This document shows positions 30,693 to 48,199 of a stretch of DNA of 48,925 bases, piece after piece. The notes beneath the pieces were generated by a model. The model was not told where the DNA came from. It was given only the letters and a program-made list of their open reading frames with translations, and ran no database searches. The first letter of the stretch is position 1, and each line of letters opens with the position of its first letter. This stretch comes from Barthelona sp. PAP020 (Eukaryota). The stretch lies in assembly GCA_040182905.1 (NCBI GenBank), contig JARQWU010000048.1:1-48925 (forward strand), read 5' to 3'. A program made the position numbers and the translations under genes.

Positions 30693-33600
30693 TTATTTCT
30701 TCATGTCAATTTCTGTGGTAATTTCAGACTCAACTAAACTTGCTGGTATTGAAAGAAATCCACTGTTATAATTAAAAAAATTAATATTGTCAAAAGCAGT
30801 GAATCTTTTCTTTTCTGGTATTTTTGTAAGATTCAAAAGATCACAAAAGAGAATTTTTTCAATCTTTAAATTTTGAGTGACTTTATGATGCAATTTCAAA
30901 ATTTGATCATAAAAATTGTTGGTTAAAGGACTTGGAAGAGGAAATTGATAACAATGACTCAACAAAGCCAAAAAAAAAGTGAAAAATTCTACTCTATTTT
31001 TCTCAACAATAACAATGGGTAAACTATATATTTGATTAATTCCAGGAGCCCAATCATTTCTAAAATTAGATAATTCTCTGAAACTGTCAATAAAAGAACT
31101 TTGAGGACTTCCAATTGGTTGTGGTAAATTTCTGAAAAGATCAATAGCATCTAAATAATGAATAGTACCCAAGCCTTTAGGATCGTACATACTCCATGCT
31201 TGTTGATATGTTCGAACAATATTAATATCGACTTGAATTTGTTCATGAAATCTTGAAGATGCAAATGAATCAACCAAAATACCAATCAAATATGACAAGA
31301 TAATGAAATTATTTAAATAAATGAAAAAAGTGAAAAATAAAAGTGCTGAAATACTCGGGTTAAGTGAAGTTAATTCTGTTAGCCAGTTATCTAATGTTAA
31401 TAAACGTATGTTAGCCCCAAAAGCGGTAAAAAATGTTGAATAATGTTTAATATAATCACCAAATAAAATCATGCTGAAAATTGTGAAAAAAACCAAGAAA
31501 ATGAAACAGATTATAAGAATATTAATAAATGAGGGAATAGCTTTCAATAAGGAATCAAAAATTAAACTTAGTCTTTGAACATATTTTGCAATTTTAAATA
31601 ATCTAGTGAATCTCAATAGTCTAATTACTCTTAAGCTTTTCAAGGAACTATTGCTAAAAAAATAGGTTAAAAACAAATCAACAATAGAAATAACAACTAA
31701 AATGAAATCTAAATAATTCCATGAATCCAAAAAATATTCAAATTTAAAAGTAAAGAATTTAACCAAAAATTCAATGAAAAATAAAATTGTACAACTCAAA
31801 GTAATCAATTCTGAATAAAATAAAAAGGTTTGTGATGAATGTTCAGTCTTTGCAATTATAAAAAAACTGTTTATTACAATAAAAAACATTATAAAGATGT
31901 TAAACATCTTCCCATTTAATAATTCTTTAAATTTCCAAATTTTACTGTCAATGTTTAATTCTAAACTGATGGGTTTGGCGTTTGAAATAAAAAACTCAAA
32001 GTTGACAAGAAAATTGCTTTGTTTTTTTGAAAAAAAGATTTCTCTCTTCTTTAAACTTAATTCTAAACTAAAGGAATCAATAACAACACCAATAAACATG
32101 TTTAATAATAAAAATGAACAGATTATTACAAAAGAAATCAAATAAAGAGAACACCATAGGTTGTTCTCTGAAAATAGATTTGTTTTACTTTCATTACTAC
32201 TGAGCGGATTAAATGTTAATAACGCAGGCCACTCTTCTAATGTCAACATTCCAAACAAAGTTACCATACTTTCACCAAAACTATCAAAAGACTTATGAAT
32301 TTGAGGTTTAATAATATCTGTCTCATTACATAAAGAGATATGCGATACAGTAATGTCTGAGCATTTATTTAAATTTCCTTGAAAAATTCCCATACCAATT
32401 AGGGAAAAAACAAGCATAATCAAAAGAATAATCAAAGACATCCTTAAAATAGATTTGATAGAAGGAATCATTGATAATATAACAATTTTCAAAGAATTAA
32501 TAGTGGAAAATATTCTTAAAAACCTTAAAATTTTGAAAAACCTCAAAAACTTTACAACTTTTGAATCATTTTCAAATTCAATAAAAAAAACAATAATTGA
32601 AGGCAAACTGACAAAAGTCACAAAGAAATCTAAAACATTGCCAGAATTCTCAAAATATTTTTTTCTTCCATTTATTCTCAATTTCACAATTGCTTCAACT
32701 ATATAAATAAATAAAAATACAATTTCAACTCTTTGAACAACTTTCAATTGACTTTGAAGACCTTGCCCAAAATTTATTTCGTTGGACAAAAAAATTTCCG
32801 CAACTATCAAACTAACGTTAATCAAAATAAGTATCAACAAAATATAATCCCAAAGATTAAGTTTAGCATTCATTTTTTCATTAATTATTCTAAAAGTTGT
32901 CGAATATTCTTCTTCAAAAATATCAACACCTGTAGAAGCATCGAAATGATCTTCTTTTACAGGTAATTTCAATTTGGTAACTTGTTTTAAAGGTTTATTG
33001 TCATCAGCATTTTGAATTCTTATTGATTCCTCAAAGCTTTTGTCTTTATCACTTTTGTTTGTATCTTTACATCCAAATTCTTTAATTCGAGCTGAAAAAA
33101 TTTCTGGAATAACTTCCAACACCGGAAATTTATCCTCATATTCTTCTTCAGACGTTTCATCAGAAATCTCAGAAGACACATTATTGATTTCAAGTTCACC
33201 AAAATCATCTTCAAAAGATTCAGCAAATGAGCTTTCCTGTTCAACAATATTTGGAGATGAAAAAGAATATTCTTCATTCAATCCATTGAAAAATGTAATT
33301 GATTCAAGAGATTGTGATGTTTTTTCGTCATTGTTCGTCAAAAATTCCACGTTTTCAACGTTTTCGTCATCATTTGTCACATTATAACCAAATAAGTTTT
33401 CATTAAATCCTTCTTGATCAGAAGAGTGAGAAAAAGATATTCCCATTTGTTGCATATCTTCAACTTCTTGTGAATCCATTTCGTAACTGTACTCCAAAGA
33501 TGGTAATTCACTAATTGGACCACGATCAATTGTGCCATCATGTCTAGCACTTAGTTGATCACAAATATCGTCGTCCATACAAAAATCTTCACTTTGAGAC

Positions 33601-36254
33601 ATGGCCATAAGTTCATTCAGTCTGAAAGAATCCTTTCTGGCGGAATCTAAATTGCTGAATATTTTTTCATCTATATTCATAGAACCATCAAATAAAATAT
33701 CTTCCGAAGCTTCATCATTCTCTGCAGATAGTTGTGTATCATTTTCTCCAACATTTGACAACTCCATAATGTTTGATAATGTGTGAATATTTTTGATACT
33801 TAACGGTGAAAGCTCTTTACTTGGGGAAGGAGAATTTCTGAGGGTATTAATAATAGGTGAAGAAGGATAATTTATTGACTTTCCTCTCTCTTGTTCTTCT
33901 CTAAGCCATATCTTATAATCAGTTTCATTAAAATAATCATAGTATAAATAATCTGAAATTCGTTGAAAATAACCACAATTTTGAGGAAAAGTAGGATCAT
34001 CCTTATTCAAACTCAATAATTTTGCATATTTCATGGCTTCTTTTTGAAACTTTTTTGTCCAACTATTTTTTAACAACATTTCATCAAAAGCTGGATCAGT
34101 AATAAAGTTTATATCTGTTCCCAAATATTTCAAAACTTTCCTAAACAAATATTTTTCCTTTCTCTGTAATGAGAAACGATGAATAATTATCGTAACTAAC
34201 AAGTTAACGAGAAACCAATTTCCAACAATATAACTTAACATAGTAAAAATGCTGCCAAAAAATACACTATTTACACTTTCAACATTCTGTATTAAATAAT
34301 CATTCCATCCTTCCCCCGTAAAAATAGCAAACGTTACTAAAAAAGAATGGAACAAGTCAACATTCCCAAGCTGTCCAACAGGCACTCTTTGTGAGTTCGT
34401 TGGGAAAAAAAGCATTCCTATACAACTAAATACAAATAAAGCAATGAAAAAGATCAACAAAAAGGTCAATAGATCTTTGTATGATAATATTATGCTAGTT
34501 AACAATGAATTCATGGATTTACTTGTTTTAACAATGCGTAATATCCTCAACACTCTGAATGATCTTAAAAGTCTACCGGTCAAACTATCAGATGTGAAAA
34601 AAATGACTTCACACAGTCCTAAAATAGTTAAGATACCATCCAAAACATTAAACCAATTCTTAAAAAAATTGAAAAAACCATAAGCAAAAAGTTTCAAAGT
34701 AAATTCAAGGAGATAAAAAAACGAAAAATAAAAATTTGTTAATTTAATAAAATTATTTAGCGAGTCACTCATGTCCACATGTTGTATTGCTAAAATAATG
34801 CTATTGAATGAAACAAAAATTAAGATGCTTCTTTCCACAACTTCATTTTCAAAAAAATCAAATAATTTGTCCCGAAACATAAATGTACGTGGCTTATTCA
34901 CTTGAAACAACTTGTTTAATTTGTTATCAAACATTTTAACTTCTTCATTTCGGTCTTTCAAAAAATTCAACAATATTTCAGATTGGTGAGGTAACGTGGA
35001 GTTCAAAGTATTTTTGAAAAATACAAAGGCATTGTATTTTTTGTCATTTTGACAATATTCTAACTGCCTTAAAGAATTGTCGGTTTTTAATTGCTCAACC
35101 ACATTTTTGCCAGTTTGAAAAGGAATAATTGATGGAACCAAATGTTTGAAATGTATTTGATCATTTGTAGCTAAAATATCCGTCAAGCGATTAACAATGT
35201 TCTCATCTATATTATCAGCATTACCAAATGGCTCCAACAAGGCGCCTATTAAAAGATTGACTAAAATAAAACTGCATGATCCAATAACAACACAGAAATA
35301 TATTGTAACAAAAAATTTATTTTCATTGGACTCCATTAAAGCGCTATATATGGAATTCCATCCTTCAAGAGAAATTATTTGAAACACGGTCAAGAAGGAA
35401 TTGTAAACATTATCGAAAGAAGTCGTTTCATTATTCATATTTGTCCCAACAGTCAAACAATAAAAATTTGATGGGCAATCATTATCATTTGAACATCTTT
35501 GAAAAGAATTTGCAAGAGAGGTAAAAGAAATGTTGGTTTTGGACCCTCCAAAATTTTGATCTAAAAAGTCTTGGTCAACACAACGATTATGTAAACAACC
35601 ACCAAATAAGTGTAACCCTGCAACACTCAGAACAAGCAGAACAAATATTAAAATGAGAAAAGTGTCTTGGACAAAAGATATTGAATTGTTCAACTTTTGA
35701 AAAAGTTTGGAGGCCTTTTTTGACTGACAAAACAGTTTATTAACTGCAAACAACCTAAATAGAGTTATGATTGAAATATCAACAAAAAAGGGAAGATATT
35801 TAAATGAAATAATTAACAAAATTAAAAAATTAAACTTATTTGAAAAACTATCAAAATAACTATTGTGTCCACTCCAACCATAACCAAAGAGCTTTACAAT
35901 AAATTCTATTAAAAAAACCAAATCAATAAACCATTCCAAAAATCTAAAAAAGAAATAGTTATTGCAAATTTGTGGATATTGAAAACTAAACACAATAAAT
36001 AATACATTTAGAAAGATTATAAACAAAATAAAATGATCAAACATCTTGTTTTTACATACAGAATAGAAATTATTTCGCCAACCAAAATGCTTGGAAAAAG
36101 CAGGACCATATGGATCATATTTGACAGCTATATGTATCGCGTCTTTTTTGGTCTTTATAAGATCATCTTCATAAAAAGGTCTTATACTCTGCAATCTTTC
36201 AAAGCCCTCCAAAAATGAATCACTTGAATCATTTGTAAGACTTGTATTGTTCAT
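30693..36254 (-). CDS. Four-domain (24-TM) voltage-gated cation channel alpha subunit, Cav/Nav superfamily, 1853 aa
   Basis: Four 6-TM repeats. S4 segments RLLRSFRVLRILRIVK, KFLRFFKILRFLR and KSLRVIRLLRFTRLFK. Pore loops ISLEGW, FTGEGW, LTLEEW and LTLDNW. C-terminal EF-hand-like YQQAWSMYDPKGLGTIHYLDAIDLFRNLPQPIG as in Cav/Nav tails. Confidence 0.93.
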   Translation of the reverse strand: MNNTSLTNDSSDSFLEGFERLQSIRPFYEDDLIKTKKDAIHIAVKYDPYGPAFSKHFGWRNNFYSVCKNKMFDHFILFIIFLNVLFIVFSFQYPQICNNYFFFRFLEWFIDLVFLIEFIVKLFGYGWSGHNSYFDSFSNKFNFLILLIISFKYLPFFVDISIITLFRLFAVNKLFCQSKKASKLFQKLNNSISFVQDTFLILIFVLLVLSVAGLHLFGGCLHNRCVDQDFLDQNFGGSKTNISFTSLANSFQRCSNDNDCPSNFYCLTVGTNMNNETTSFDNVYNSFLTVFQIISLEGWNSIYSALMESNENKFFVTIYFCVVIGSCSFILVNLLIGALLEPFGNADNIDENIVNRLTDILATNDQIHFKHLVPSIIPFQTGKNVVEQLKTDNSLRQLEYCQNDKKYNAFVFFKNTLNSTLPHQSEILLNFLKDRNEEVKMFDNKLNKLFQVNKPRTFMFRDKLFDFFENEVVERSILIFVSFNSIILAIQHVDMSDSLNNFIKLTNFYFSFFYLLEFTLKLFAYGFFNFFKNWFNVLDGILTILGLCEVIFFTSDSLTGRLLRSFRVLRILRIVKTSKSMNSLLTSIILSYKDLLTFLLIFFIALFVFSCIGMLFFPTNSQRVPVGQLGNVDLFHSFLVTFAIFTGEGWNDYLIQNVESVNSVFFGSIFTMLSYIVGNWFLVNLLVTIIIHRFSLQRKEKYLFRKVLKYLGTDINFITDPAFDEMLLKNSWTKKFQKEAMKYAKLLSLNKDDPTFPQNCGYFQRISDYLYYDYFNETDYKIWLREEQERGKSINYPSSPIINTLRNSPSPSKELSPLSIKNIHTLSNIMELSNVGENDTQLSAENDEASEDILFDGSMNIDEKIFSNLDSARKDSFRLNELMAMSQSEDFCMDDDICDQLSARHDGTIDRGPISELPSLEYSYEMDSQEVEDMQQMGISFSHSSDQEGFNENLFGYNVTNDDENVENVEFLTNNDEKTSQSLESITFFNGLNEEYSFSSPNIVEQESSFAESFEDDFGELEINNVSSEISDETSEEEYEDKFPVLEVIPEIFSARIKEFGCKDTNKSDKDKSFEESIRIQNADDNKPLKQVTKLKLPVKEDHFDASTGVDIFEEEYSTTFRIINEKMNAKLNLWDYILLILILINVSLIVAEIFLSNEINFGQGLQSQLKVVQRVEIVFLFIYIVEAIVKLRINGRKKYFENSGNVLDFFVTFVSLPSIIVFFIEFENDSKVVKFLRFFKILRFLRIFSTINSLKIVILSMIPSIKSILRMSLIILLIMLVFSLIGMGIFQGNLNKCSDITVSHISLCNETDIIKPQIHKSFDSFGESMVTLFGMLTLEEWPALLTFNPLSSNESKTNLFSENNLWCSLYLISFVIICSFLLLNMFIGVVIDSFSLELSLKKREIFFSKKQSNFLVNFEFFISNAKPISLELNIDSKIWKFKELLNGKMFNIFIMFFIVINSFFIIAKTEHSSQTFLFYSELITLSCTILFFIEFLVKFFTFKFEYFLDSWNYLDFILVVISIVDLFLTYFFSNSSLKSLRVIRLLRFTRLFKIAKYVQRLSLIFDSLLKAIPSFINILIICFIFLVFFTIFSMILFGDYIKHYSTFFTAFGANIRLLTLDNWLTELTSLNPSISALLFFTFFIYLNNFIILSYLIGILVDSFASSRFHEQIQVDINIVRTYQQAWSMYDPKGLGTIHYLDAIDLFRNLPQPIGSPQSSFIDSFRELSNFRNDWAPGINQIYSLPIVIVEKNRVEFFTFFLALLSHCYQFPLPSPLTNNFYDQILKLHHKVTQNLKIEKILFCDLLNLTKIPEKKRFTAFDNINFFNYNSGFLSIPASLVESEITTEIDMKK

Positions 36255-38063: not shown

Positions 38064-38327
38064 TCAATAAGAATTTAAAGAAACCCAAATATGTTGTTCA
38101 TCCTTCAAAACAGTTTCAATCGTTGCATTCATATCCAACAATGTACCGTCTTCAAATTGTACACTTCTAGGAGTTCCTAATTCGATTAAGTCATCAGAAT
38201 CCAGTCTCCCTTTAACAACAGAAGAAAAGCGGGCAATAGCAACAAAAGTCAACCAACTTATTGTTTGAGTTGATGGTCCTGTTTCAACAGGAATGCAAGT
38301 GTCTTTAAGATGAACAAATATCTTCAT
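38064..38327 (-). CDS. Small (87 aa) protein resembling the Par3/HAL N-terminal ubiquitin-like domain
   Basis: MKIFVHLKDTCIPVETGPSTQTISWLTFVAIARF...GTLLDMNATIETVLKDEQHIWVSL matches the pattern I recall for histidine ammonia-lyase/Par3 N-terminal domains (V-x-V...P-x-x-x-G...WL..A..R[YF]...LD....I..VL.D...V.V). The ATG at 38327 follows a T-rich leader like the other genes. Confidence 0.6.
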   Translation of the reverse strand: MKIFVHLKDTCIPVETGPSTQTISWLTFVAIARFSSVVKGRLDSDDLIELGTPRSVQFEDGTLLDMNATIETVLKDEQHIWVSLNSY

Positions 38328-38513
38328 AAAATCAAAAATAAGAAATGAATGTTTTTTTGAACGCATTTTATTGTAAATGAATATGATTTGTGTTGAAATA
38401 CGTAATCTAAAATATTCAAAAGAGAAGAAATGTGATTGATTAATTTGAAATAAATCATCACCACATTGAATTGTCAAGACTCATTCCAAAATTCTTTACA
38501 AAAAAGTTTTACA
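38328..38513. promoter_or_regulatory. Probable bidirectional promoter between divergent genes
   Basis: Only 186 bp of AT-rich DNA separates the head-to-head start codons at 38327 (-) and 38514 (+). No specific element identified. Confidence 0.45.
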
Positions 38514-41012
38514 ATGCATTTAACTAAAACCGAATTATTACCCACCAATTACGATGAATATTGGAAGAATTTGAATGAAGCTGCTGATTTTGTCAAAGAT
38601 AGACTTGGAGCTGCTGACATTTGTCTTGTGCTTGGCAGTGGTCTTGGTGATTTTGTTGATACAACCCTTTCCGATGCACCTTTTGTTAATTACAATGAAA
38701 TTCCTCATATGTTTGCCCCTGGTGTTGCGGGACATAAAGGTGCAGTTTATTTGGGAGAGTTTGGTGAGCATAAAGTGTTATGTTTTGCTGGTAGATATCA
38801 TCCTTATGAAGCTTATCCTTCAGTTATTGCCGGTTGGTTACCTCGTTTAGCATATTTATGTGGTTGTCGTCTTTATATTGCCACTAATGCTGCTGGATGC
38901 GCAGATTTTGGTGCCAAAATTGGTGATTTAAGTGTTATTACTGATATTATTGATACTCATCGCATTTCAACACTGACTGATTTGTCTGATGATCCTCGGT
39001 GGTTCAATGGCATGGAAACAATTGATACTTCTTCATTGTTTTCTGATAGATTAAAGAAAATTGCTTTAGAATATGCTAAAAAGGAGGATTTCAATTTGCG
39101 TCAAAATGTTTATTGCATGCAATTTGGTCCTTGTTACGAAACACCTCATGAAGTGCATAGACTTGTTGATGAGGGTGGACGATTATTTGGAATGTCAACT
39201 ATTCCTGAAGCTTTGGCAGCCAAAGCATTAGGAATGGAAGTTTTTGCTGTTTCATGTATTACTAATTTAGCTGCTGGTTACTCAGAAACCAAATTAAATC
39301 ATGAAGAAGTTGGAGATGCTGCCAAAATTGCTGCACCAACAATGAGAAAATTAATGACTTATTTGCTTTCTAATGTTGAACTTGGAGCTTCAGTTCATGT
39401 ATCACCTGTTACCGTTAATCAAGCAGCAGGACATGAGACAGCCAGGTTACTCCACCCTCCCGCTTCTGGTGAAGAATTAGTCAATGGTCAAAATATGTTG
39501 TTGAAATTTACAGAAGGTAAACCTTTCATTGGTCTTTATATATGCCCTGGTGGTCATTCAGTTATTGATCGTTTGAATTTGGATCGTGTAATTGAATTAT
39601 CTGAGTTTTTACCTGTTGTTCGCACACGTTCTGAATCTAAAGGTGCTATTTATTATGGGGAATCTCATGGCAATATTTTTGTTGCTGTTGAATGCCGACG
39701 CTTTCAAGGATTCCACATGGACAGTGAAAGATTTATTGGTGCAGTTTTTGCATTGAGTGGATGTTATCAGTTTGTTCAAATAGTTCCTGGTAAAGCCACC
39801 AATAAGAATGTTATTCCTAGAAGTATTACCCAAATAAAAGACATTATTCACAATTCAAACAATTATCCTGCACCTTTAGTTCATCCCTTAGTTAAAGAAG
39901 ATGTTGGTGTTTTACCTTTATTGAGTGGGGAAACAGACAAAATGGCAATGACATTCACTGCTCCAATTATTCCCGCTCCTGTTGAAGTTGAATTCGCCAA
40001 TAGAGCTGGTTGTGATTTTGCTTTATTCCACCCAAGTGTTTTATCTGATATAATGAGAGCCAGTGATATTTCTACTATTACATTTGTTTTGAATGTTCTT
40101 GATTGTGATGAAGTGTTAGAACAAACTACCAGAATTTTAGACAACGTAAAGGGTTCCATTCATATGCTTGGAGGTGCCATTTATGAAAGAATTTTGGATT
40201 TGACTGAATCAACACCCAATGATATTTTAATTAAGGATATTGACAAAAGTTTCAAATTTGAAGGGAAATTTGAATATTATCAATTGTTTGCTGGTGCTTT
40301 TAATCCTACTGATGTTGAAATGATGACTAAATTTGCCCAAGAGAATAATTTGATGGAAAAAAATTGGGAGTTTGGTATTATTTGTCGTGAAGAACATTGG
40401 AGTGATATTGATGGATATTCATGCATTGAAATTCCTTTCATTAATTCCAAAATATATTTTAATGATTTGAAGATAGCTATTGTTGGTGATTTCAATTCAA
40501 ATAACGGTGTTAATATTAGAATGAGCACTTTGGCTGTTAGATTGTTGGGAGTTTGCAATGTTAAAAAAATTTATAACATTTTTACTGCATATAGTACTGG
40601 AATTGAAGCTCAAATACTGGTTCCTTCTGATCACATAAATTATTGGGGTGATTCTGGTTTGATTGGACACAATGCTGATCATTTCGGAACAAGATTCCCA
40701 GATGTTACGAAGATTTATAATGTTGAAATGAATAATGAGATAATGGATAAATTAAGAAGTTGGAACTTTGAAGTTGAAAGTGGTGTTTTAGGTATTGAAT
40801 TTGGGCCCATTTCTCAAGGGGATTTGAAGCGTGTTCAAGGTTTGAAAACAATTGCCTTGGCTTCTGGAGAAGGATTAGAAAATATTGTTGTTAACCATAT
40901 GTCTCAAAATTTCAATGTCTTCAGCAGTTCAATTGTTGGTATTGTTGGCAGTGACGAAAAGAACATTGTTGATAAAAGATTGGGTGACATTGTCAAAAAA
41001 TTGTTAGAATAA
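38514..41012 (+). CDS. PNP: Purine nucleoside phosphorylase (trimeric NP-I family) with one intact and two degenerate tandem PNP domains, 832 aa
   Basis: Domain 1 has LGSGLG, AGHKG, GRYHPYE, TNAAG, GPCYETPHE, GMSTIPE, ITNLAAG and LNHEEV. Later segments echo the fold (KPFIGLYIC, ITQIKDIIH, PAPVEVEFANRAGCD; EFGIIC, DHINYWGDSGLIGHNADHFGTRFPDVTKIYN). The first in-frame ATG is 38514; the track start is TTG. Confidence 0.88.
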   Translation: MHLTKTELLPTNYDEYWKNLNEAADFVKDRLGAADICLVLGSGLGDFVDTTLSDAPFVNYNEIPHMFAPGVAGHKGAVYLGEFGEHKVLCFAGRYHPYEAYPSVIAGWLPRLAYLCGCRLYIATNAAGCADFGAKIGDLSVITDIIDTHRISTLTDLSDDPRWFNGMETIDTSSLFSDRLKKIALEYAKKEDFNLRQNVYCMQFGPCYETPHEVHRLVDEGGRLFGMSTIPEALAAKALGMEVFAVSCITNLAAGYSETKLNHEEVGDAAKIAAPTMRKLMTYLLSNVELGASVHVSPVTVNQAAGHETARLLHPPASGEELVNGQNMLLKFTEGKPFIGLYICPGGHSVIDRLNLDRVIELSEFLPVVRTRSESKGAIYYGESHGNIFVAVECRRFQGFHMDSERFIGAVFALSGCYQFVQIVPGKATNKNVIPRSITQIKDIIHNSNNYPAPLVHPLVKEDVGVLPLLSGETDKMAMTFTAPIIPAPVEVEFANRAGCDFALFHPSVLSDIMRASDISTITFVLNVLDCDEVLEQTTRILDNVKGSIHMLGGAIYERILDLTESTPNDILIKDIDKSFKFEGKFEYYQLFAGAFNPTDVEMMTKFAQENNLMEKNWEFGIICREEHWSDIDGYSCIEIPFINSKIYFNDLKIAIVGDFNSNNGVNIRMSTLAVRLLGVCNVKKIYNIFTAYSTGIEAQILVPSDHINYWGDSGLIGHNADHFGTRFPDVTKIYNVEMNNEIMDKLRSWNFEVESGVLGIEFGPISQGDLKRVQGLKTIALASGEGLENIVVNHMSQNFNVFSSSIVGIVGSDEKNIVDKRLGDIVKKLLE

Positions 41013-41264
41013 AGAATTTTCATCGAAACAAACAAGTAAAGTGTGTTGTTTACATATTTTTTTTTTTGCATTTTCGTAATTTGAATCATTTTTGTTTTTG
41101 AAGGAGTTATTGATTTCCTTAATTATTTTTAATTGTTCTTTTGTGTAAAAGTTGTTGACAAATCATATGATCAATAGATTGTAAACATGTTTATTGATAT
41201 TAAAGTCAATTTTGCTTTTAAAAAAAAAAGGCGTTTGTTCAGTGATTTTATTTTTATATATGTG

Positions 41265-44200
41265 ATGAATTTTGACAATCAACCTTCACCAAAGTCTGAA
41301 AAAGAATCGAAAAGCAATAATTCTGAAGAATATGAAACTGACGAAGATGAAGATGAATATGACGAAGACGAATATTATGATGAAGAAGAAGATATTGAAT
41401 ATCAAAATCTTGTTAGTGAAAACGAAGAAATGAAAGAGGAAATTTCAAGGCTCCAAAAGGTTTTTAAGGATGTTGAAAAACAAAATACAGTTCTTTCAGA
41501 AGAAAATTCAAGATTAAGTATTCGCCTTGAAAGAATTGATGATGAACGTAAAGCTCAAGCGTTGAGGCAAAAGAAAGAAATAAATGATTTACAATCTCAA
41601 AAGGAACGATTGATTCAAGAGAAGGAGTCATTAATGGGTAGGTTAACTTCTGCTGGTGACAGTGCGACTGAATTTAATCAAAAAGTGAGAAATCAAACTT
41701 CCACAATTTCAAATTTAGAAACTCAAGTAGACGCTTTGGAAGCACAAAATAAATTATTACGGAAATCCATAGGGGATGAAAGAAAGAGGTTTGATACTTT
41801 AGAGGTTGAAAAGAAATTCAATGAGAATCAATTGAATGAAGTGAACACCCTTTTGAAAAGTGTAAAAGCACAACTTTCACGTGCAACCAATAGAATAGCT
41901 GAGTTGGAAGAAAAGGAAGCAGCGTCTAATAGTAACAGATTAAAATTGCTGTCAGAACAAGATAAAATAGTCAAGTCTTTAAGAGAGGAAATTAATGATT
42001 TAAATAAAACAATAAATAAAAAGAAAGAACAAGAAATAATGCTTTTAAAGCGAATTGATGAATATCAAAGAAATTTTAAAGATGTGAAGGAAGGATTGGA
42101 TCAGATGTATTCTTTGAAACAATTAATTAGCAATCAGCAAAGTGAATTGATTGACCGAGAAGAGCAAATTGAAGAACTGATGGAAGAAGTTGAGCGATTA
42201 CGTTTGGAACCAACGGAAATCAATGATTTAATAATGAATCAACGAGAAGAACTAAGATTAAAGACGATTGATTATGAGATGGAACTTGATTCATGGAAAT
42301 TCAAATATGAAAGTTCTGAGTTAGCAAGAGATTCATTGCAAGAACAGTTACAAAAACGTGAAAGTGAATTAAATGCTTATGAAGTAAAGTTTAAGAAGTT
42401 AGCTAGTGGAAAAATTGAGATTGCTGATTTATTGCAAGAAATTGAAGAGAAAGACAATATAGTGGCAAATCGTGATCGTGAGATTCATATTCTACGTCAA
42501 CAGTTGAATGATTTTCAAAATAGATTGAGCATGATTGGAAAAGAGCTTTTATTATTAAGAAAACGAGCTCAAGATCATGGAATTAACATCAGTGACATTA
42601 AAGTTGACAATTTAGAAGATTTATTGGGTATAGAACAAAGGAATTTACTTGAACAGATTCGTTTTGAAAATATTGCGTTGGAAAAGGAAATTTCCTCATT
42701 AGAAGAAGAAAAGAGTCGTTACAGGCGTCGTGCAAGAGGATTATATGCTGCTGCACTTCAATTAGCAAAGCATACATCTTTTGTTGGGGAAGATTTACAA
42801 ACAATATTTGAAACTTTGGAAGTTTTGGGCACTTCTGACAATGATATTGAAACTTCAAAAGCTGGGGATGGAATTCATAATCTTTTAGCAAAGTTGGGGG
42901 AAAGTGATAAAAATGTTGATGTGTCTAATGTTTCTCAAATTGAAGTTATGTATTTATCACAACAAATGAAAGATAAGGATGTAGCTATAGACAGTTTAAA
43001 AGAAGAGTTAAAAGAGATGAAAACCTTGTTGAATGAAACACAAATTGATTTAGAAGAAAAAGTAATTTTGCTGAAAGAAACAAAACAAAGTAAAGAATAT
43101 GTATTGATTGAGAAATTAAAGGACTCTCCCTTTTTTGCTGATTTAAAGATCGATCCTGTCTCATTAATGTTTTTGGGGAAAAAATTGGTTGAAAGTTACG
43201 AAAATATTAATAAATTGAACGATTATTGTAAAAACTTGGAGGAAAAAGTCTTAAGCAGTTCAAAAGACAAGGAAAAATTAGTTAGTGAGATTATATTTTT
43301 GTCTTCAAAATTACATTCAAAGTTTTCAAATGAAATTTTTAACAGTTTGAAAAAAATTCAAGTTGAGATCAATTCAAATGAAGATGAACCACTGTTGAAG
43401 TTTGATTTTTATAATAATGATGTGGAAACTCAAAACGCTCGGATTAAACAGTTAGAGACTGATAACAAAGATTTGAGCCAATTGTTACATGATGAAAGAA
43501 TCGAAAAACAAAAGTTTAAAGAAATGTATTCAATCATTCATGAAAGTGTTGGTGACAATTCAATAGTAACGACATTAGCAGATATTAGAGGGAAAAATAT
43601 TGAATTAAAAGATTCATTGGAACAAAAGGAAATGGAACTTTTACATTACATGAAACTATCGAATGATTTAAACAAAAGTTTGAGGGAGGTTGAAATTTAT
43701 TTGAAAAGCAGATTGATTTATTATCAAACGCGCTCTGAGAAACTATTTGAAATGATTATTTTAGAGGATACAAATATTTTAAAACTTGATGAGATATGTA
43801 AAATAAAGGAAAAAAATTCAAAATTGGTTACGTTACAAATTCAAAATAATGAGATTATTAAGAGCTTACAAGAAGTAATCCGAAACTATGATGATGGAAA
43901 AATGAAAAAGAGAGGGCAAAATCATGAATTTTTAGCACAGATGAGTCTTGATAATGCGTTGAATAGAGCCAATTTATTGGCTGAGTTGAGTTCTTTAAAA
44001 AATACTTCACATCAACAATTTGTAGAGTTGAAGAGATTTTATTCGCTATTGTCCACGAATGGAACTCTTTCAAAAGATTTATTGAAGAAATTGAAAGCTT
44101 TAGGCAACAATGAAAGACCTGCAATATTGGACATTGCAGAAAATGCTTCTGAGCATTTAGCTAATTTTGTTGAAGCAAATGTTGAAAATCAAAGGTTAAA

Positions 44201-45419
44201 AGAAGATATTATTTCAAAAGACAAGTTGATTAAAGCTTTGAAGAATCAAAATATGGAAACCAAATTGGAACTTTCACAAATAAATTTAGAGCATCAAAAG
44301 TTAAAATCAGAAATGAGTCAAAGTACATTGATTAACAGTGTAATTCCTTATTCAACAATGGTTCACTCACAAGAGGATTATGAGAATAAAATTACTCGAT
44401 TAGTTGAAACAATTGAACGAAAAGATGGTGAGATTAATAGAAAGATATTGGCAATTGAAAGATATCAAGAATTGTTGAAGAAAGCGAGAGAAGATCAAGA
44501 AAAGCATGCCAAAACAGATTCAAAGATCAGGCAAGCGATGCTAAAACAATTAGATAAATATGAGAAACAACGAACTAAAGACCTGATTAAAACAAATGGT
44601 GAAATTGCCTTGAATGAAACGAACCAAATCATAATTCAATTAGAAAGTGAAAAGGCTGCATTATTGAGGGATAAACAAGTATATATAAACACTAATGAAA
44701 GTTTAGCAAATAAAATGAAAAAAATGAAACAAATAATGAAAGTTTTAAAAAGAGAAATTAGCATCAAGGAGCGAAAAGTATTAGAATTGGAGAATATCAA
44801 TCCAAATGAACAGCTGCAATTATTAAATGAAGAATTAAAGAGTGAATTGAGAAAATCAAAGTCATTAATCAGTAGTCTTCAAAAAGAATCAATAACAAGG
44901 GGAAATAGCATGAAATCAGTAGGTTTATCTCTTGCTGAGACTGAAATGAAATTGGCAACAATTACCGATGCGTTAAATCAAAAAACTGTTGAAATTGAAG
45001 AATTACAAAAGAGCAATGCTTATTTAAATAATTTGTTGACTGATATTAATCAACGTTTCAGTCGTGTTAGAGGTGAAAAAGAACTTTTAGAAAAGAAGTT
45101 AGCTGGTTCAAACGCCAATGTTTCTAATATGAATGTTAGTGAAACAATAGATGATGATCAGGAAAATTTAGCATTTTATGACAATAATGCCCTGAGGAAA
45201 TTCATCAATAAGTTGCGAAAGAAACTTAGAAGATCAGAACAGAATCGAATTCATTTAGGTGACAAATTGAATGATAAAGCAAATCAAATTATGGAATTGG
45301 AAAATAATATTGATGAATTGTTGAAAGAAGTTGGTTCATTGGAAGCAGAAAGAGATAATTTGCTAAGTAGAGTTCACAAATTAATTTCTTCAAAAGCTAA
45401 ACCTGTCATAAAGGAATAA
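41265..45419 (+). CDS. CEP290: CEP290-like long coiled-coil ciliary transition-zone protein, ~1384 aa
   Basis: Long coiled coil with blocks resembling CEP290 from memory: ASGKIEIADLLQEIEEKDNIVANRDREIHILRQQLN, IRFENIALEKEISSLEEEK and IERYQELLKKAREDQEK. Start at 41265 is preferred over 41187 because the extra residues look like T/A-rich leader. Confidence 0.65.
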   Translation: MNFDNQPSPKSEKESKSNNSEEYETDEDEDEYDEDEYYDEEEDIEYQNLVSENEEMKEEISRLQKVFKDVEKQNTVLSEENSRLSIRLERIDDERKAQALRQKKEINDLQSQKERLIQEKESLMGRLTSAGDSATEFNQKVRNQTSTISNLETQVDALEAQNKLLRKSIGDERKRFDTLEVEKKFNENQLNEVNTLLKSVKAQLSRATNRIAELEEKEAASNSNRLKLLSEQDKIVKSLREEINDLNKTINKKKEQEIMLLKRIDEYQRNFKDVKEGLDQMYSLKQLISNQQSELIDREEQIEELMEEVERLRLEPTEINDLIMNQREELRLKTIDYEMELDSWKFKYESSELARDSLQEQLQKRESELNAYEVKFKKLASGKIEIADLLQEIEEKDNIVANRDREIHILRQQLNDFQNRLSMIGKELLLLRKRAQDHGINISDIKVDNLEDLLGIEQRNLLEQIRFENIALEKEISSLEEEKSRYRRRARGLYAAALQLAKHTSFVGEDLQTIFETLEVLGTSDNDIETSKAGDGIHNLLAKLGESDKNVDVSNVSQIEVMYLSQQMKDKDVAIDSLKEELKEMKTLLNETQIDLEEKVILLKETKQSKEYVLIEKLKDSPFFADLKIDPVSLMFLGKKLVESYENINKLNDYCKNLEEKVLSSSKDKEKLVSEIIFLSSKLHSKFSNEIFNSLKKIQVEINSNEDEPLLKFDFYNNDVETQNARIKQLETDNKDLSQLLHDERIEKQKFKEMYSIIHESVGDNSIVTTLADIRGKNIELKDSLEQKEMELLHYMKLSNDLNKSLREVEIYLKSRLIYYQTRSEKLFEMIILEDTNILKLDEICKIKEKNSKLVTLQIQNNEIIKSLQEVIRNYDDGKMKKRGQNHEFLAQMSLDNALNRANLLAELSSLKNTSHQQFVELKRFYSLLSTNGTLSKDLLKKLKALGNNERPAILDIAENASEHLANFVEANVENQRLKEDIISKDKLIKALKNQNMETKLELSQINLEHQKLKSEMSQSTLINSVIPYSTMVHSQEDYENKITRLVETIERKDGEINRKILAIERYQELLKKAREDQEKHAKTDSKIRQAMLKQLDKYEKQRTKDLIKTNGEIALNETNQIIIQLESEKAALLRDKQVYINTNESLANKMKKMKQIMKVLKREISIKERKVLELENINPNEQLQLLNEELKSELRKSKSLISSLQKESITRGNSMKSVGLSLAETEMKLATITDALNQKTVEIEELQKSNAYLNNLLTDINQRFSRVRGEKELLEKKLAGSNANVSNMNVSETIDDDQENLAFYDNNALRKFINKLRKKLRRSEQNRIHLGDKLNDKANQIMELENNIDELLKEVGSLEAERDNLLSRVHKLISSKAKPVIKE

Positions 45420-46309
45420 TTGAATTGAAATGGAAAGTTCCAATCTGTAAGATAAAATTCAAAGTAGTCTATAAATTGTATTTTTTAAATAGTAAATGTT
45501 TAAATAAAATTTTCATATTTTTTTATTTCATTAGTTGTTCAAATAGAGGCTGAAATCAAACAGAAAAATGGAGGTTAAAGAATTTAATCTTTGTACAAAG
45601 TGGGTTCTGGTTTTTAAATTCTTTGAAATATGCAAATTGCTTTATTTTTGTGCACTTATCGAAACTCAAAGGTTAAGAACAAATGCATATTATTTTCTTT
45701 TATATCAGTGCATTAATAATTTCTTTTCACCAACTGAGAAAGCAAAAAAAAATAGAAATGCGTTTCTTTCAAGGCATCAGATTTATTGAGGAATATTCCC
45801 CATCAATCGTGAAAAATCAACCAAATGAAAATTAAATAATATAGCAAAGAAAACAAAAGACTTGGGAAGAGAAGAAATAAATGAATTTTCAAGGGTGTTG
45901 AATCCCAAACAAGTATTTTTCAGATCAATTCACAAATATTCTGAAAATAAACGATATAAAACAAACAAAACTATAAATAGTCGGCAATTAGGATTGGAGG
46001 TAAAGATTACAAATGAATACTCAAAAATTCAACATCACAAGATAAATTCAAAATCCTTTTACATGTATAAAGCTATTAAAATATAGTTTAACATTACAAA
46101 ATTATGCATGGAAATTCGAAAGAAGACAATTGATGATTTAAAAAATCATCATTATACAAGTACATTTCAACGCCAAAAGTTTCAAAACATTGATTGATTA
46201 ATGGTGCAACAATTGGTAAAGAGTTCATAAAAGTAAAATTAATCTTTATCAAATTTCTTTTTTTTCACAGATATTTGTTTCTAATAAGAATTTAACCTTT
46301 AGCAAGGTG

Positions 46310-48199
46310 ATGGTATTGAAATCAAAAGAAGAGGAAATTATATTTGAAGCCAGTTGGCGATTAATGGACAGAAATTGGATAGGTAACCCCGAATTATTTG
46401 CAAAGCGCATGAAATCCCTTAAATTACCTAATATTCGTGGAACAACTTTGAAAATAGTTGAACCTGAGTTTGCCAAGAATGGAAATGTTTTTTTTTCCAC
46501 TGCTGAAAAAGATGGAATTGTTCATGTGATCAAGTTCTTCAATGAAAAGCAAAAAAAACAGAAGTTTCTCAAAGAATGCATTCCAATGGCTCTCAATCAT
46601 CCTTGCATTCGTCAATTAAATGGGGTTACGGAAATCAAAGGGAAAAAGGGAATAGTAATGGAATATTGTGATACTGTTCTTGAACATGAAATACCCAACC
46701 TGCATTTGATGGATAAACTCACAATTTTGATGCAGATTGCTTCTACTCTGGACTATTGTCATGAATGTGGTGTTGTTCATGGCAAGCTACAACCCAAAAA
46801 TGTTTTTTTGAGGAAAAAAAATGGGAAATTGATTCCTGTTTTGAGTGATTTTGTCATGTTAAAGGATGCCAATAGTTCGTCAACATTATCTATGGTTGAT
46901 GCTACTGGTTATTTGGCTCCTGAGGTTTTAAAAAGTAACAATAAGAATAAAATTAATCGTAAAGCTGTCGATGTATGGGCATTTGCTGTAATGATGATAC
47001 ATGTGATGATAGAAGTTCCTCCTTTTAATGGGAGTGACAATCGTGAAATCTATGAAAGTTTGATGCAAGGTAAATTGCCTTATTCTGATGAGATAATTCA
47101 TTCAATTCCTGGTTATGGTATCGTAAAGCTGTGTTTTAACGTAGATTCCAGTAAACGACCTTGTTGTGAGATGATTGGTGATTATTTGAAGATGCTTATT
47201 GATACAGTGGTCGAAGAGACATCTAAAGAAGAAGTTGCAATAGATGTCGTTGATCCTTCTATTAAGCATAAAATGGACCAAATTGTTGTTCCAAATGGGT
47301 TTGATGTGGATGGATATGAGGATAATGGACTTCCAAAGAAGATTTATGGGGCTGCATGTTCAGGGAATTTAGATGTTGTCAAGCAATGTATTAAATCTGG
47401 TGTTGATGTGAACAAACAAGGAAAGGCAGGAAGGACATCGTTGTATGGCGCTGCTATGTGTGGATGTGTTGAAGTTGTTGAGTTCTTATTAGATTTTGGT
47501 GCGAAGGTTAATTTGTGTAAGAATACTGGAGCTTCTTCGTTGTATATTAGCTGTGAGAATGGTCATTTGGATGTTGTAAAAATGCTATTAGATCATGATT
47601 CTGATGTTAATATGTGTAGGAATGATGGTGTTACTCCATTGTTTATTTGTTCTGAGATTGGTTATCTTGATATTGCCAAAATGCTCTTGAATCATGGCGC
47701 GGATGTTAATTTATGTGTGAATCAGGGTGCTTCCCCATTGTATATAAGTTGTCAAAATGGTCTTTTTGATGTTGCTAGAATGCTTGTGGATTATGGGGCT
47801 GATGTAAACATGTGTATGAATGATGGTGCTTCTCCATTGTATGTTAGTTGTCAAAATGGTCATGTTGATATTGCTGAAATGCTTTTGGACCATGGCGTTG
47901 ATGTTAATTTGCGAATGAATGAAGATGCTTCTCCATTATTTATTAGTTGTCAAAAAGGTCATCTTAATGTTGCCAAAATGCTGTTGTATCATGGAGCTGA
48001 TGTTAATTTGTGCACGAAAAATAAATGTTCACCATTATACGTTTGTTGTCAAAATGGTCACATTGAAATTGCTAAACTTTTATTGATTCATGGAGCCAAC
48101 GTAAATCTTAAATTCAACAATAGTACGTTGCCAATTGATGTTGGCAGAATTGAGGGGCATTGCAAAATCGTTGAGATGCTTGAACCCTATTACAATTGA
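46310..48199 (+). CDS. Protein kinase-like (probable pseudokinase) domain fused to ankyrin repeats, ~629 aa
   Basis: Kinase motifs HVIK, LNHPCI, IVMEY, VVHGKLQPKNV, SDFV, GYLAPE, DVWAFA and KRP, followed by about nine ankyrin repeats. Confidence 0.88.
   Translation: MVLKSKEEEIIFEASWRLMDRNWIGNPELFAKRMKSLKLPNIRGTTLKIVEPEFAKNGNVFFSTAEKDGIVHVIKFFNEKQKKQKFLKECIPMALNHPCIRQLNGVTEIKGKKGIVMEYCDTVLEHEIPNLHLMDKLTILMQIASTLDYCHECGVVHGKLQPKNVFLRKKNGKLIPVLSDFVMLKDANSSSTLSMVDATGYLAPEVLKSNNKNKINRKAVDVWAFAVMMIHVMIEVPPFNGSDNREIYESLMQGKLPYSDEIIHSIPGYGIVKLCFNVDSSKRPCCEMIGDYLKMLIDTVVEETSKEEVAIDVVDPSIKHKMDQIVVPNGFDVDGYEDNGLPKKIYGAACSGNLDVVKQCIKSGVDVNKQGKAGRTSLYGAAMCGCVEVVEFLLDFGAKVNLCKNTGASSLYISCENGHLDVVKMLLDHDSDVNMCRNDGVTPLFICSEIGYLDIAKMLLNHGADVNLCVNQGASPLYISCQNGLFDVARMLVDYGADVNMCMNDGASPLYVSCQNGHVDIAEMLLDHGVDVNLRMNEDASPLFISCQKGHLNVAKMLLYHGADVNLCTKNKCSPLYVCCQNGHIEIAKLLLIHGANVNLKFNNSTLPIDVGRIEGHCKIVEMLEPYYN
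47336..48190 (+). repeat. Ankyrin repeat array (~9 x 33 aa, 99-bp period)
   Basis: Units such as SPLYISCQNGLFDVARMLVDYGADVNMCMNDGA. Similarity is also visible in the DNA (recurring gttgtcaaaatggtc and gatgttaattt). Confidence 0.92.

Follow-up and report, generated by a model that had tools for sequence, protein, structure and literature searches.

A predicted single-chain pseudo-trimeric purine nucleoside phosphorylase with one active site in Barthelona sp. PAP020 and other protists

Purine nucleoside phosphorylases (PNPs) of the trimeric type, such as human and calf PNP, PunA and E. coli XapA (EC 2.4.2.1; TIGR01697, PRK08202, PF01048), consist of three subunits of about 270-290 amino acids (aa) with three active sites, and site and donor loop are carried on one domain. 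In a cyclic trimer, each subunit gives its loop to one neighbour and takes a loop from the other. Here we describe a PNP gene of Barthelona sp. PAP020 (Eukaryota) that encodes one chain of 832 aa with one predicted site, in which site and donor loop lie on different domains. The gene occupies positions 38514..41012 of the plus strand in a window of 48,925 nucleotides, the whole stretch of DNA that was analysed (NCBI GenBank assembly GCA_040182905.1, contig JARQWU010000048.1, positions 1 to 48,925, forward strand). Its three fused PNP domains, designated D1, D2 and D3, probably form a one-chain ring that mimics the homotrimer, with a single predicted inosine/guanosine site in D1 that is likely shaped by the loop of D3.

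Single-chain pseudo-oligomers with active and dead repeats exist, for example eukaryotic fused pseudo-dimeric enzymes, and these likewise arose by subunit duplication and subsequent loss of catalysis in some copies. The present protein differs from them in that three copies of a cyclic trimer are fused and the two interface faces are visibly split between domains. No description of a multi-domain PNP was found in literature titles or abstract openings, a coverage that excludes most subscription papers and supplements. PNP is reported in nearly all diplomonads, with the domain layout unmentioned in the available part of that account (PMC11437800). For calf PNP, another study gives an interface in which the 141-168 loop of a subunit lies on its neighbour's residues 87-91 and 196-205, and describes a six-alanine interface mutant of PNP that is monomeric and inactive; why PNP must be a trimer though its three sites act independently is presented there as an open question (PMC9916683).

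The open reading frame (ORF) is uninterrupted from the ATG at 38514 to the TAA at 41010-41012; the ORF finder places the start at an upstream TTG (38466). The sequence-only reading had proposed that this frame holds three PNP domains, and both profile-profile matches and the three alpha/beta domains of an AlphaFold model bear this out. D1 (aa 1-288; 38514..39377) matches Pfam PNP_UDP_1 (PF01048) over residues 36-285 with E=8.8e-29, at 101 bits against a cut-off of 25.1. The protein passes the NCBIfam cut-offs of PRK08202 (251.4 vs 218 bits) and TIGR01697 (244.5 vs 197.1 bits), both figures being whole-protein scores from two stretches, and falls short of the cut-offs set for the narrower models PNPH, PUNP, XAPA and MTAP. 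D3 (aa 598-832; 40305..41009) by itself matches TIGR01700 (E=1e-12), and in a phmmer comparison with solved structures residues 700-758 align with Clostridium PNP 8SWU in its donor-loop segment (E=5e-7). D2 (aa 319-563; 39468..40202) by itself gave no match in Pfam or NCBIfam. When slices of a 70-row alignment (A3) were compared by hhalign, D1-D2, D1-D3 and D2-D3 matched with E=3.7e-32, 5.8e-34 and 9.2e-21, the probabilities among the three domains being 99.9, 99.9 and 99.3%; slices of an 11-row alignment gave profile-profile values of E=3e-24 for D1-D2 and E=1.7e-21 for D1-D3. A profile of 64 bacterial single-domain PNPs also matches D2 (E=1.4e-34) and D3 (E=2.4e-54). The proposed Pfam/HHpred check for three domains was thus borne out at the profile-profile level, which shows all three, but not by Pfam alone, which on the whole protein sees D1 and a weak D3 stretch (E=0.15).

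An AlphaFold2 model was computed from the 70-row A3 alignment with no templates. It has a mean predicted local distance difference test score (pLDDT) of 84.9 (81.9-84.9 over five models) and a predicted template modelling score (pTM) of 0.90; single-sequence AlphaFold was uninformative (pLDDT 31.9, pTM 0.24). Three alpha/beta units at about 13-287, 319-563 and 598-831 are joined by two low-confidence linkers, linker 1 (aa 289-318; 39378..39467) with pLDDT < 50 at 299-307 and linker 2 (aa 564-597; 40203..40304) with pLDDT < 50 at 569-596, and given the pTM of 0.90 the domains are placed confidently relative to one another. VIA-align superposes D1 on human PNP 3k8o with Z 34.5 and a root-mean-square deviation (rmsd) equal to 1.7 over 277 aligned residues. 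In a wide structural search, D3 (model 599-832) was matched to AMP nucleosidase 1ybf (Z 17.3, rmsd 3.2, 207 aligned) and D2 to a PAC2-family protein (Z 10.1, rmsd 3.8, 168 aligned); an ESM Atlas search with D2 returned one match at 0.75, which is uninformative.

All nine catalytic equivalents listed for D1 by the sequence-only reading were found: S42, H74, R94, H96, E209, M227, S228, N251 and H263. We take these to be, in order, human Ser33, His64, Arg84, His86, Glu201, Met219, Ser220, Asn243 and His257, with numbers assigned by motif. Among the D1 rows of A3 that hold a residue at the position concerned, and in human numbering, H64 is present in 62/62, R84 and H86 each in 63/63, E201 in 67/67, M219 and S220 each in 69/69, N243 in 67/69 (two Asp) and H257 in 67/69, while position S33 holds Ser in 53/60 and Thr in 6/60. 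Each of the three catalytic motifs is carried by 63-66 of 66 D1 domains and by 0 of 68 D2 and 0 of 60 D3, so that the earlier view of a single catalytic domain holds across a wide family. The phosphate-, ribose- and base-binding set, including the Glu201 and Asn243 equivalents, is complete in D1 and absent from D2 and D3. Because these two equivalents are present, the D1 site is predicted to catalyse phosphorolysis of 6-oxopurine nucleosides to base and ribose-1-phosphate, for purine salvage; the chemistry itself is probably ordinary.

D1 shares the fold and the full catalytic set of the trimeric PNPs, and the donor loop and receiving face of the present protein are of the same sequence type as theirs. 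D1 is a member of the trimeric-type PNP family; the whole protein lacks the single-domain feature of that family. Assignment to MTAP or the hexameric DeoD-type PNPs was considered and rejected: MTAP models score 24-60 bits against cut-offs of 223-382, and Z is 18-23 compared with 33-35 for trimeric PNPs. Distant superfamily relatives (Z about 18) share the fold and reaction type and differ in oligomer and substrate range.

The donor loop is distributed in the opposite way to the site. In D3 (aa 706-735; 40629..40718) the loop DHINYWGDSGLIGHNADHFGTRFPDV, which begins at 40629, is intact, with Arg727 at 40692-40694 and Phe728, the equivalent of Phe159, at 40695-40697. Among the D3 rows of A3, the Phe is present in 59/61 and the Arg in 60/61. 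The donor motif G-x-R-F is found in 57/60 D3, 0/68 D2 and 69/80 bacterial proteins; it has nine matches in D1, eight of them in the C-terminal helix and one (family member P0070) in the loop position, so that a canonical loop occurs in 1/66 D1. These counts support the earlier claim that only D3 keeps an intact donor loop. Measured against the consensus of the 64 bacterial single-domain PNPs, the loop scores 0.40 in D1, 0.14 in D2 and 0.81 in D3, and the Phe column 0.03 in D1, a gap in D2 and 0.98 in D3; the D2 loop is shortened. The D1 loop (aa 144-176; 38943..39041), previously described as eroded, has indeed lost its Phe159-equivalent tip and is half-eroded, not gone. P0070 is the sole member of 66 with a canonical D1 loop besides its D3 loop, and is possibly a relic of the ancestral state.

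The receiving segment GPxYETxAE, compared with the same bacterial consensus, scores 0.81 in D1, whose face is intact, 0.49 in D2 and 0.25 in D3. In the D2 GP-x-x-P-x-x-x-E segment (aa 483-491, here AP-I-I-P-A-P-V-E; 39960..39986), the equivalent of GPSFETVAE, the family keeps Gly-Pro and the final Glu (62/70 rows), and the catalytic Glu is replaced by Pro (64/70 rows). D2, which had been said to keep neither site nor loop, does lack the catalytic motifs and the donor motif; part of its receiving face is nevertheless kept, in the query as G399 and segment 483-491. The conservation grades pair loop and face in one way only: D3 loop and D1 face are best, D1 loop and D2 face half preserved, D2 loop and D3 face worst. 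From this one-way pairing we infer the ring direction D3→D1→D2→D3.

The same architecture had been proposed as worth seeking in other taxa, and it was found in distant protist groups. Two word-index searches gave ten long relatives; a further one returned mostly single-domain PNPs and no new named triple. A profile search was run over 1.84 billion representatives, and among the best 150 matches D1-D2-D3 in order was present in 48, D1-D2 in 16, D1-D3 in 5, D2-D3 in 1 and a single domain in 80; these counts use profiles built from many of the same sequences, and the 11-sequence profiles show the same layout. An artefact of chance read-through or mis-assembly was rejected, since dozens of unrelated sequences share the layout. 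Organism names were taken from a look-up of 20 proteins, and the named members are Acanthamoeba castellanii, Stenamoeba stenopodia, Bolivina argentea, Pygsuia biforma, Tritrichomonas foetus, Gefionella okellyi, Eukaryota sp. TZLM1-RC, Stygiella incarcerata and Stentor coeruleus. We take these to span Amoebozoa, Rhizaria, Breviatea, Metamonada, Malawimonada, Discoba and Alveolata. EukProt entries among the members could include prey contamination; the contigs that carry the Acanthamoeba, Tritrichomonas, TZLM1-RC and Stentor members measure 48 kb to 3.7 Mb.

The closest described proteins are the long protist PNPs L8GW90, OHT13651.1, OMJ78353.1 and KAL0219132.1, which have the same D1-D2-D3 layout and division of motifs as the query at no more than 31% identity across the aligned part, and whose source labels give only PNP or hypothetical protein, with no mention of three domains. 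The first three belong to Acanthamoeba castellanii, Tritrichomonas foetus and Stentor coeruleus, respectively. The nearest named relative, KAL0219132.1 of Eukaryota sp. TZLM1-RC (31% identity), groups as sister to the query for each of the three domains; TZLM1-RC is named as the type isolate of the metamonad Skoliomonas litria (PMC11603281). Judged by this one gene, the host of the query is thus probably a metamonad too. No prokaryotic triple was seen among 80 GTDB loci, a thin sample from 3 of 64 parts scanned, with at most one PNP domain per frame; 72 of the 80 frames fall short of 400 codons, and each of the other 8 has a single PNP domain. In two other proteins, P0084 and P0117, two PNP stretches each carry a donor-loop motif, possibly through independent duplications or as assembly artefacts.

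Phylogenetic trees were built as quick searches, without bootstrap or approximately unbiased (AU) test, and animal, fungal and plant PNPs were not knowingly included. A branch with an SH-like approximate likelihood ratio test (SH-aLRT) value of 99 separates thirty D1 domains from 40 bacterial PNPs. In a 178-row tree with loop columns removed, 66 D1 domains and 15 further loop-less sequences form a clade with support 93; of these 15, 11 exceed 330 aa and resemble incomplete triples. A further tree took 20 proteins, each with three domains, and 20 bacterial PNPs; in it, D1, D2 and D3 form one group each (SH-aLRT 100, 98 and 97). Since each domain groups with its counterparts, the tree fits a single triplication before the listed lineages split. 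As to duplication order, D2 pairs with D3 in the tree, though long branches lead to both of them.

Taken as a whole, these results lead us to regard the protein as a single-chain pseudo-trimer, a reading that is well supported though indirect. An ancient single triplication would have been followed by a division of tasks, in which each copy retained only the surface that its neighbour needs. The D3 loop would serve the D1 site, the D1 loop would face D2, and the D2 loop would face D3. D1 would retain the site and the receiving face, and D3 the loop that props up the D1 site; the D1 loop would decay, since it faces the dead D2, which would act as a spacer closing the ring. Once the tasks were divided, the three parts would be mutually dependent and none could be lost, so that the layout would persist without any new function.

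Several points weigh against this reading. The contact between the D3 loop and the D1 site is deduced from conservation. The structural matches of D2 and D3 are single rows of a whole-model search, the Foldseek and VIA-align lists being mostly D1, and the three-domain tree came with many long-branch warnings. The D1 of P0070 keeps a canonical donor loop, and P0057 (281 aa), P0067 (297), P0092 (305) and P0170 (273) lie inside the D1 clade as loop-less sequences, which may be fragments or real stand-alone D1 proteins. Lastly, in the study cited above, Phe159 makes no substrate contact and F159A alters human PNP activity little (PMC9916683). Given so mild an effect, the near-invariance of the D3 Phe is not fully accounted for by catalysis, and the earlier statement that the site is completed by Phe159 was too strong: together with the dead six-alanine mutant, the mild F159A indicates that the whole loop interface outweighs the single Phe.

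Among other explanations, the one with most to recommend it, though still improbable, keeps the fold and the single site and has D2 and D3 retained for an extra role, either as an allosteric nucleotide or base site or for partner docking; it would add to the one-chain ring and not replace it. A 92-kDa chain is costly for one site and its layout is retained in distant lineages; at the Glu201 position D2 carries a Pro that is new and nearly invariant, query position 404 in D2 is Glu in 59/68 rows, and D3 retains Arg676 and His795 at about 0.9. Set against this, at 19 active-site positions the commonest D3 residue is never above about half of the rows, and D2 and D3 are without phosphate- or base-binding residues. 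Where a column is conserved at 70% or more, it corresponds in every case for D3, and in most cases for D2, to a residue of ordinary bacterial PNP (a glycine, a proline or an interface or loop residue), a comparison that would miss a lineage-specific site. Neither D2 nor D3 conserves a polar residue in the pocket, and the earlier suggestion of dead sites free for regulation or new functions is unsupported.

A domain-swapped dimer or larger oligomer, in which each D3 loop would reach the D1 site of a different chain, is less probable again. Both linkers are about 30 residues long and of low confidence in the model, so that swapping could be allowed, and conservation by itself cannot separate contact within a chain from contact between chains; yet the single-chain model is compact and confident, the number of domains, exactly three, equals the stoichiometry of the trimer, and each chain has exactly one intact loop and one intact site. 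It is least credible of all, to the point of being nearly discounted, that D1 is self-sufficient as a monomer or a D1 homotrimer, with D2-D3 as decaying or dispensable appendages. Short D1-only sequences do fall inside the D1 clade, and the best 150 matches include the 16 D1-D2-only and 80 single-domain entries, but many of the D1-D2-only ones look truncated, D1 is without the loop tip needed in a normal homotrimer, and the strong conservation of the D3 loop is not expected from decay.

The one-chain ring, if correct, makes the family a natural dissection in which one site, one donor loop and one spacer are kept, and which shows the interface parts that a site needs. Such an asymmetric single-chain scaffold lets one interface be mutated at a time, and it offers a clear case of a homo-oligomer that became a fused pseudo-oligomer and was then locked in. 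In the Acanthamoeba and Tritrichomonas members, a site built unlike the host enzyme's could be relevant to selective inhibitors. The spread over distant protists suggests an old eukaryotic enzyme form hidden under the plain label PNP. We put at slightly under an even chance the further proposal that the triplication took place once, at or near the last eukaryotic common ancestor (LECA), so that the pseudo-trimer would be the ancestral eukaryotic PNP, still present in amoebozoans, breviates, malawimonads, metamonads, jakobids, ciliates and foraminifera, and the animal homotrimer would have replaced it later or be a reversion. Instead of a LECA origin, the gene may have spread among protists by transfer. 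On the LECA proposal, the pseudo-trimer would be a natural one-site trimer and would show that propping up the active site is what the PNP trimer is for.

The window DNA is AT-rich and eukaryotic, with a GC content of 24-35% and long uninterrupted genes. The neighbours of the PNP gene encode an ion channel with four repeats, a WD40 protein, a long protein that Pfam does not match and a kinase-ankyrin protein, and none of the neighbours in the window shows a link to purine metabolism. On the minus strand, an open frame of at least 10,010 aa (3-30032) runs off the window; it has a signal-peptide-like N-terminus, abundant Ser, Ile, Asn, Thr and Gly and little Pro, and is possibly a giant secreted or surface protein. 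It gave no Pfam match in the 10,000 residues scanned and no internal repeat by self-BLAST at E<1e-3. The channel gene (30693-36254, minus strand) is intron-free and encodes a 1853-aa four-repeat voltage-gated Ca/Na-type channel (Ion_trans x4, weak GPHH). The WD40 gene (about 37761-36446, minus strand) seems to start upstream of the listed ORF, and its first exon presumably resembles the N-terminus of DAW1/ODA16; a probable 38-base intron lies at about 37633-37596 (GT...TACTAATTAG), with a branch-point-like motif beside its 3' end. Downstream of the PNP gene on the plus strand, 41187-45419 encodes a 1410-aa protein that is coiled-coil-looking by eye, with no significant Pfam match, and 46307-48199 a protein kinase domain fused to ankyrin repeats. 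A small ORF (38064-38477, minus strand) is arranged head-to-head with the PNP gene and encodes 137 aa from a TTG, or a shorter product from an internal ATG.

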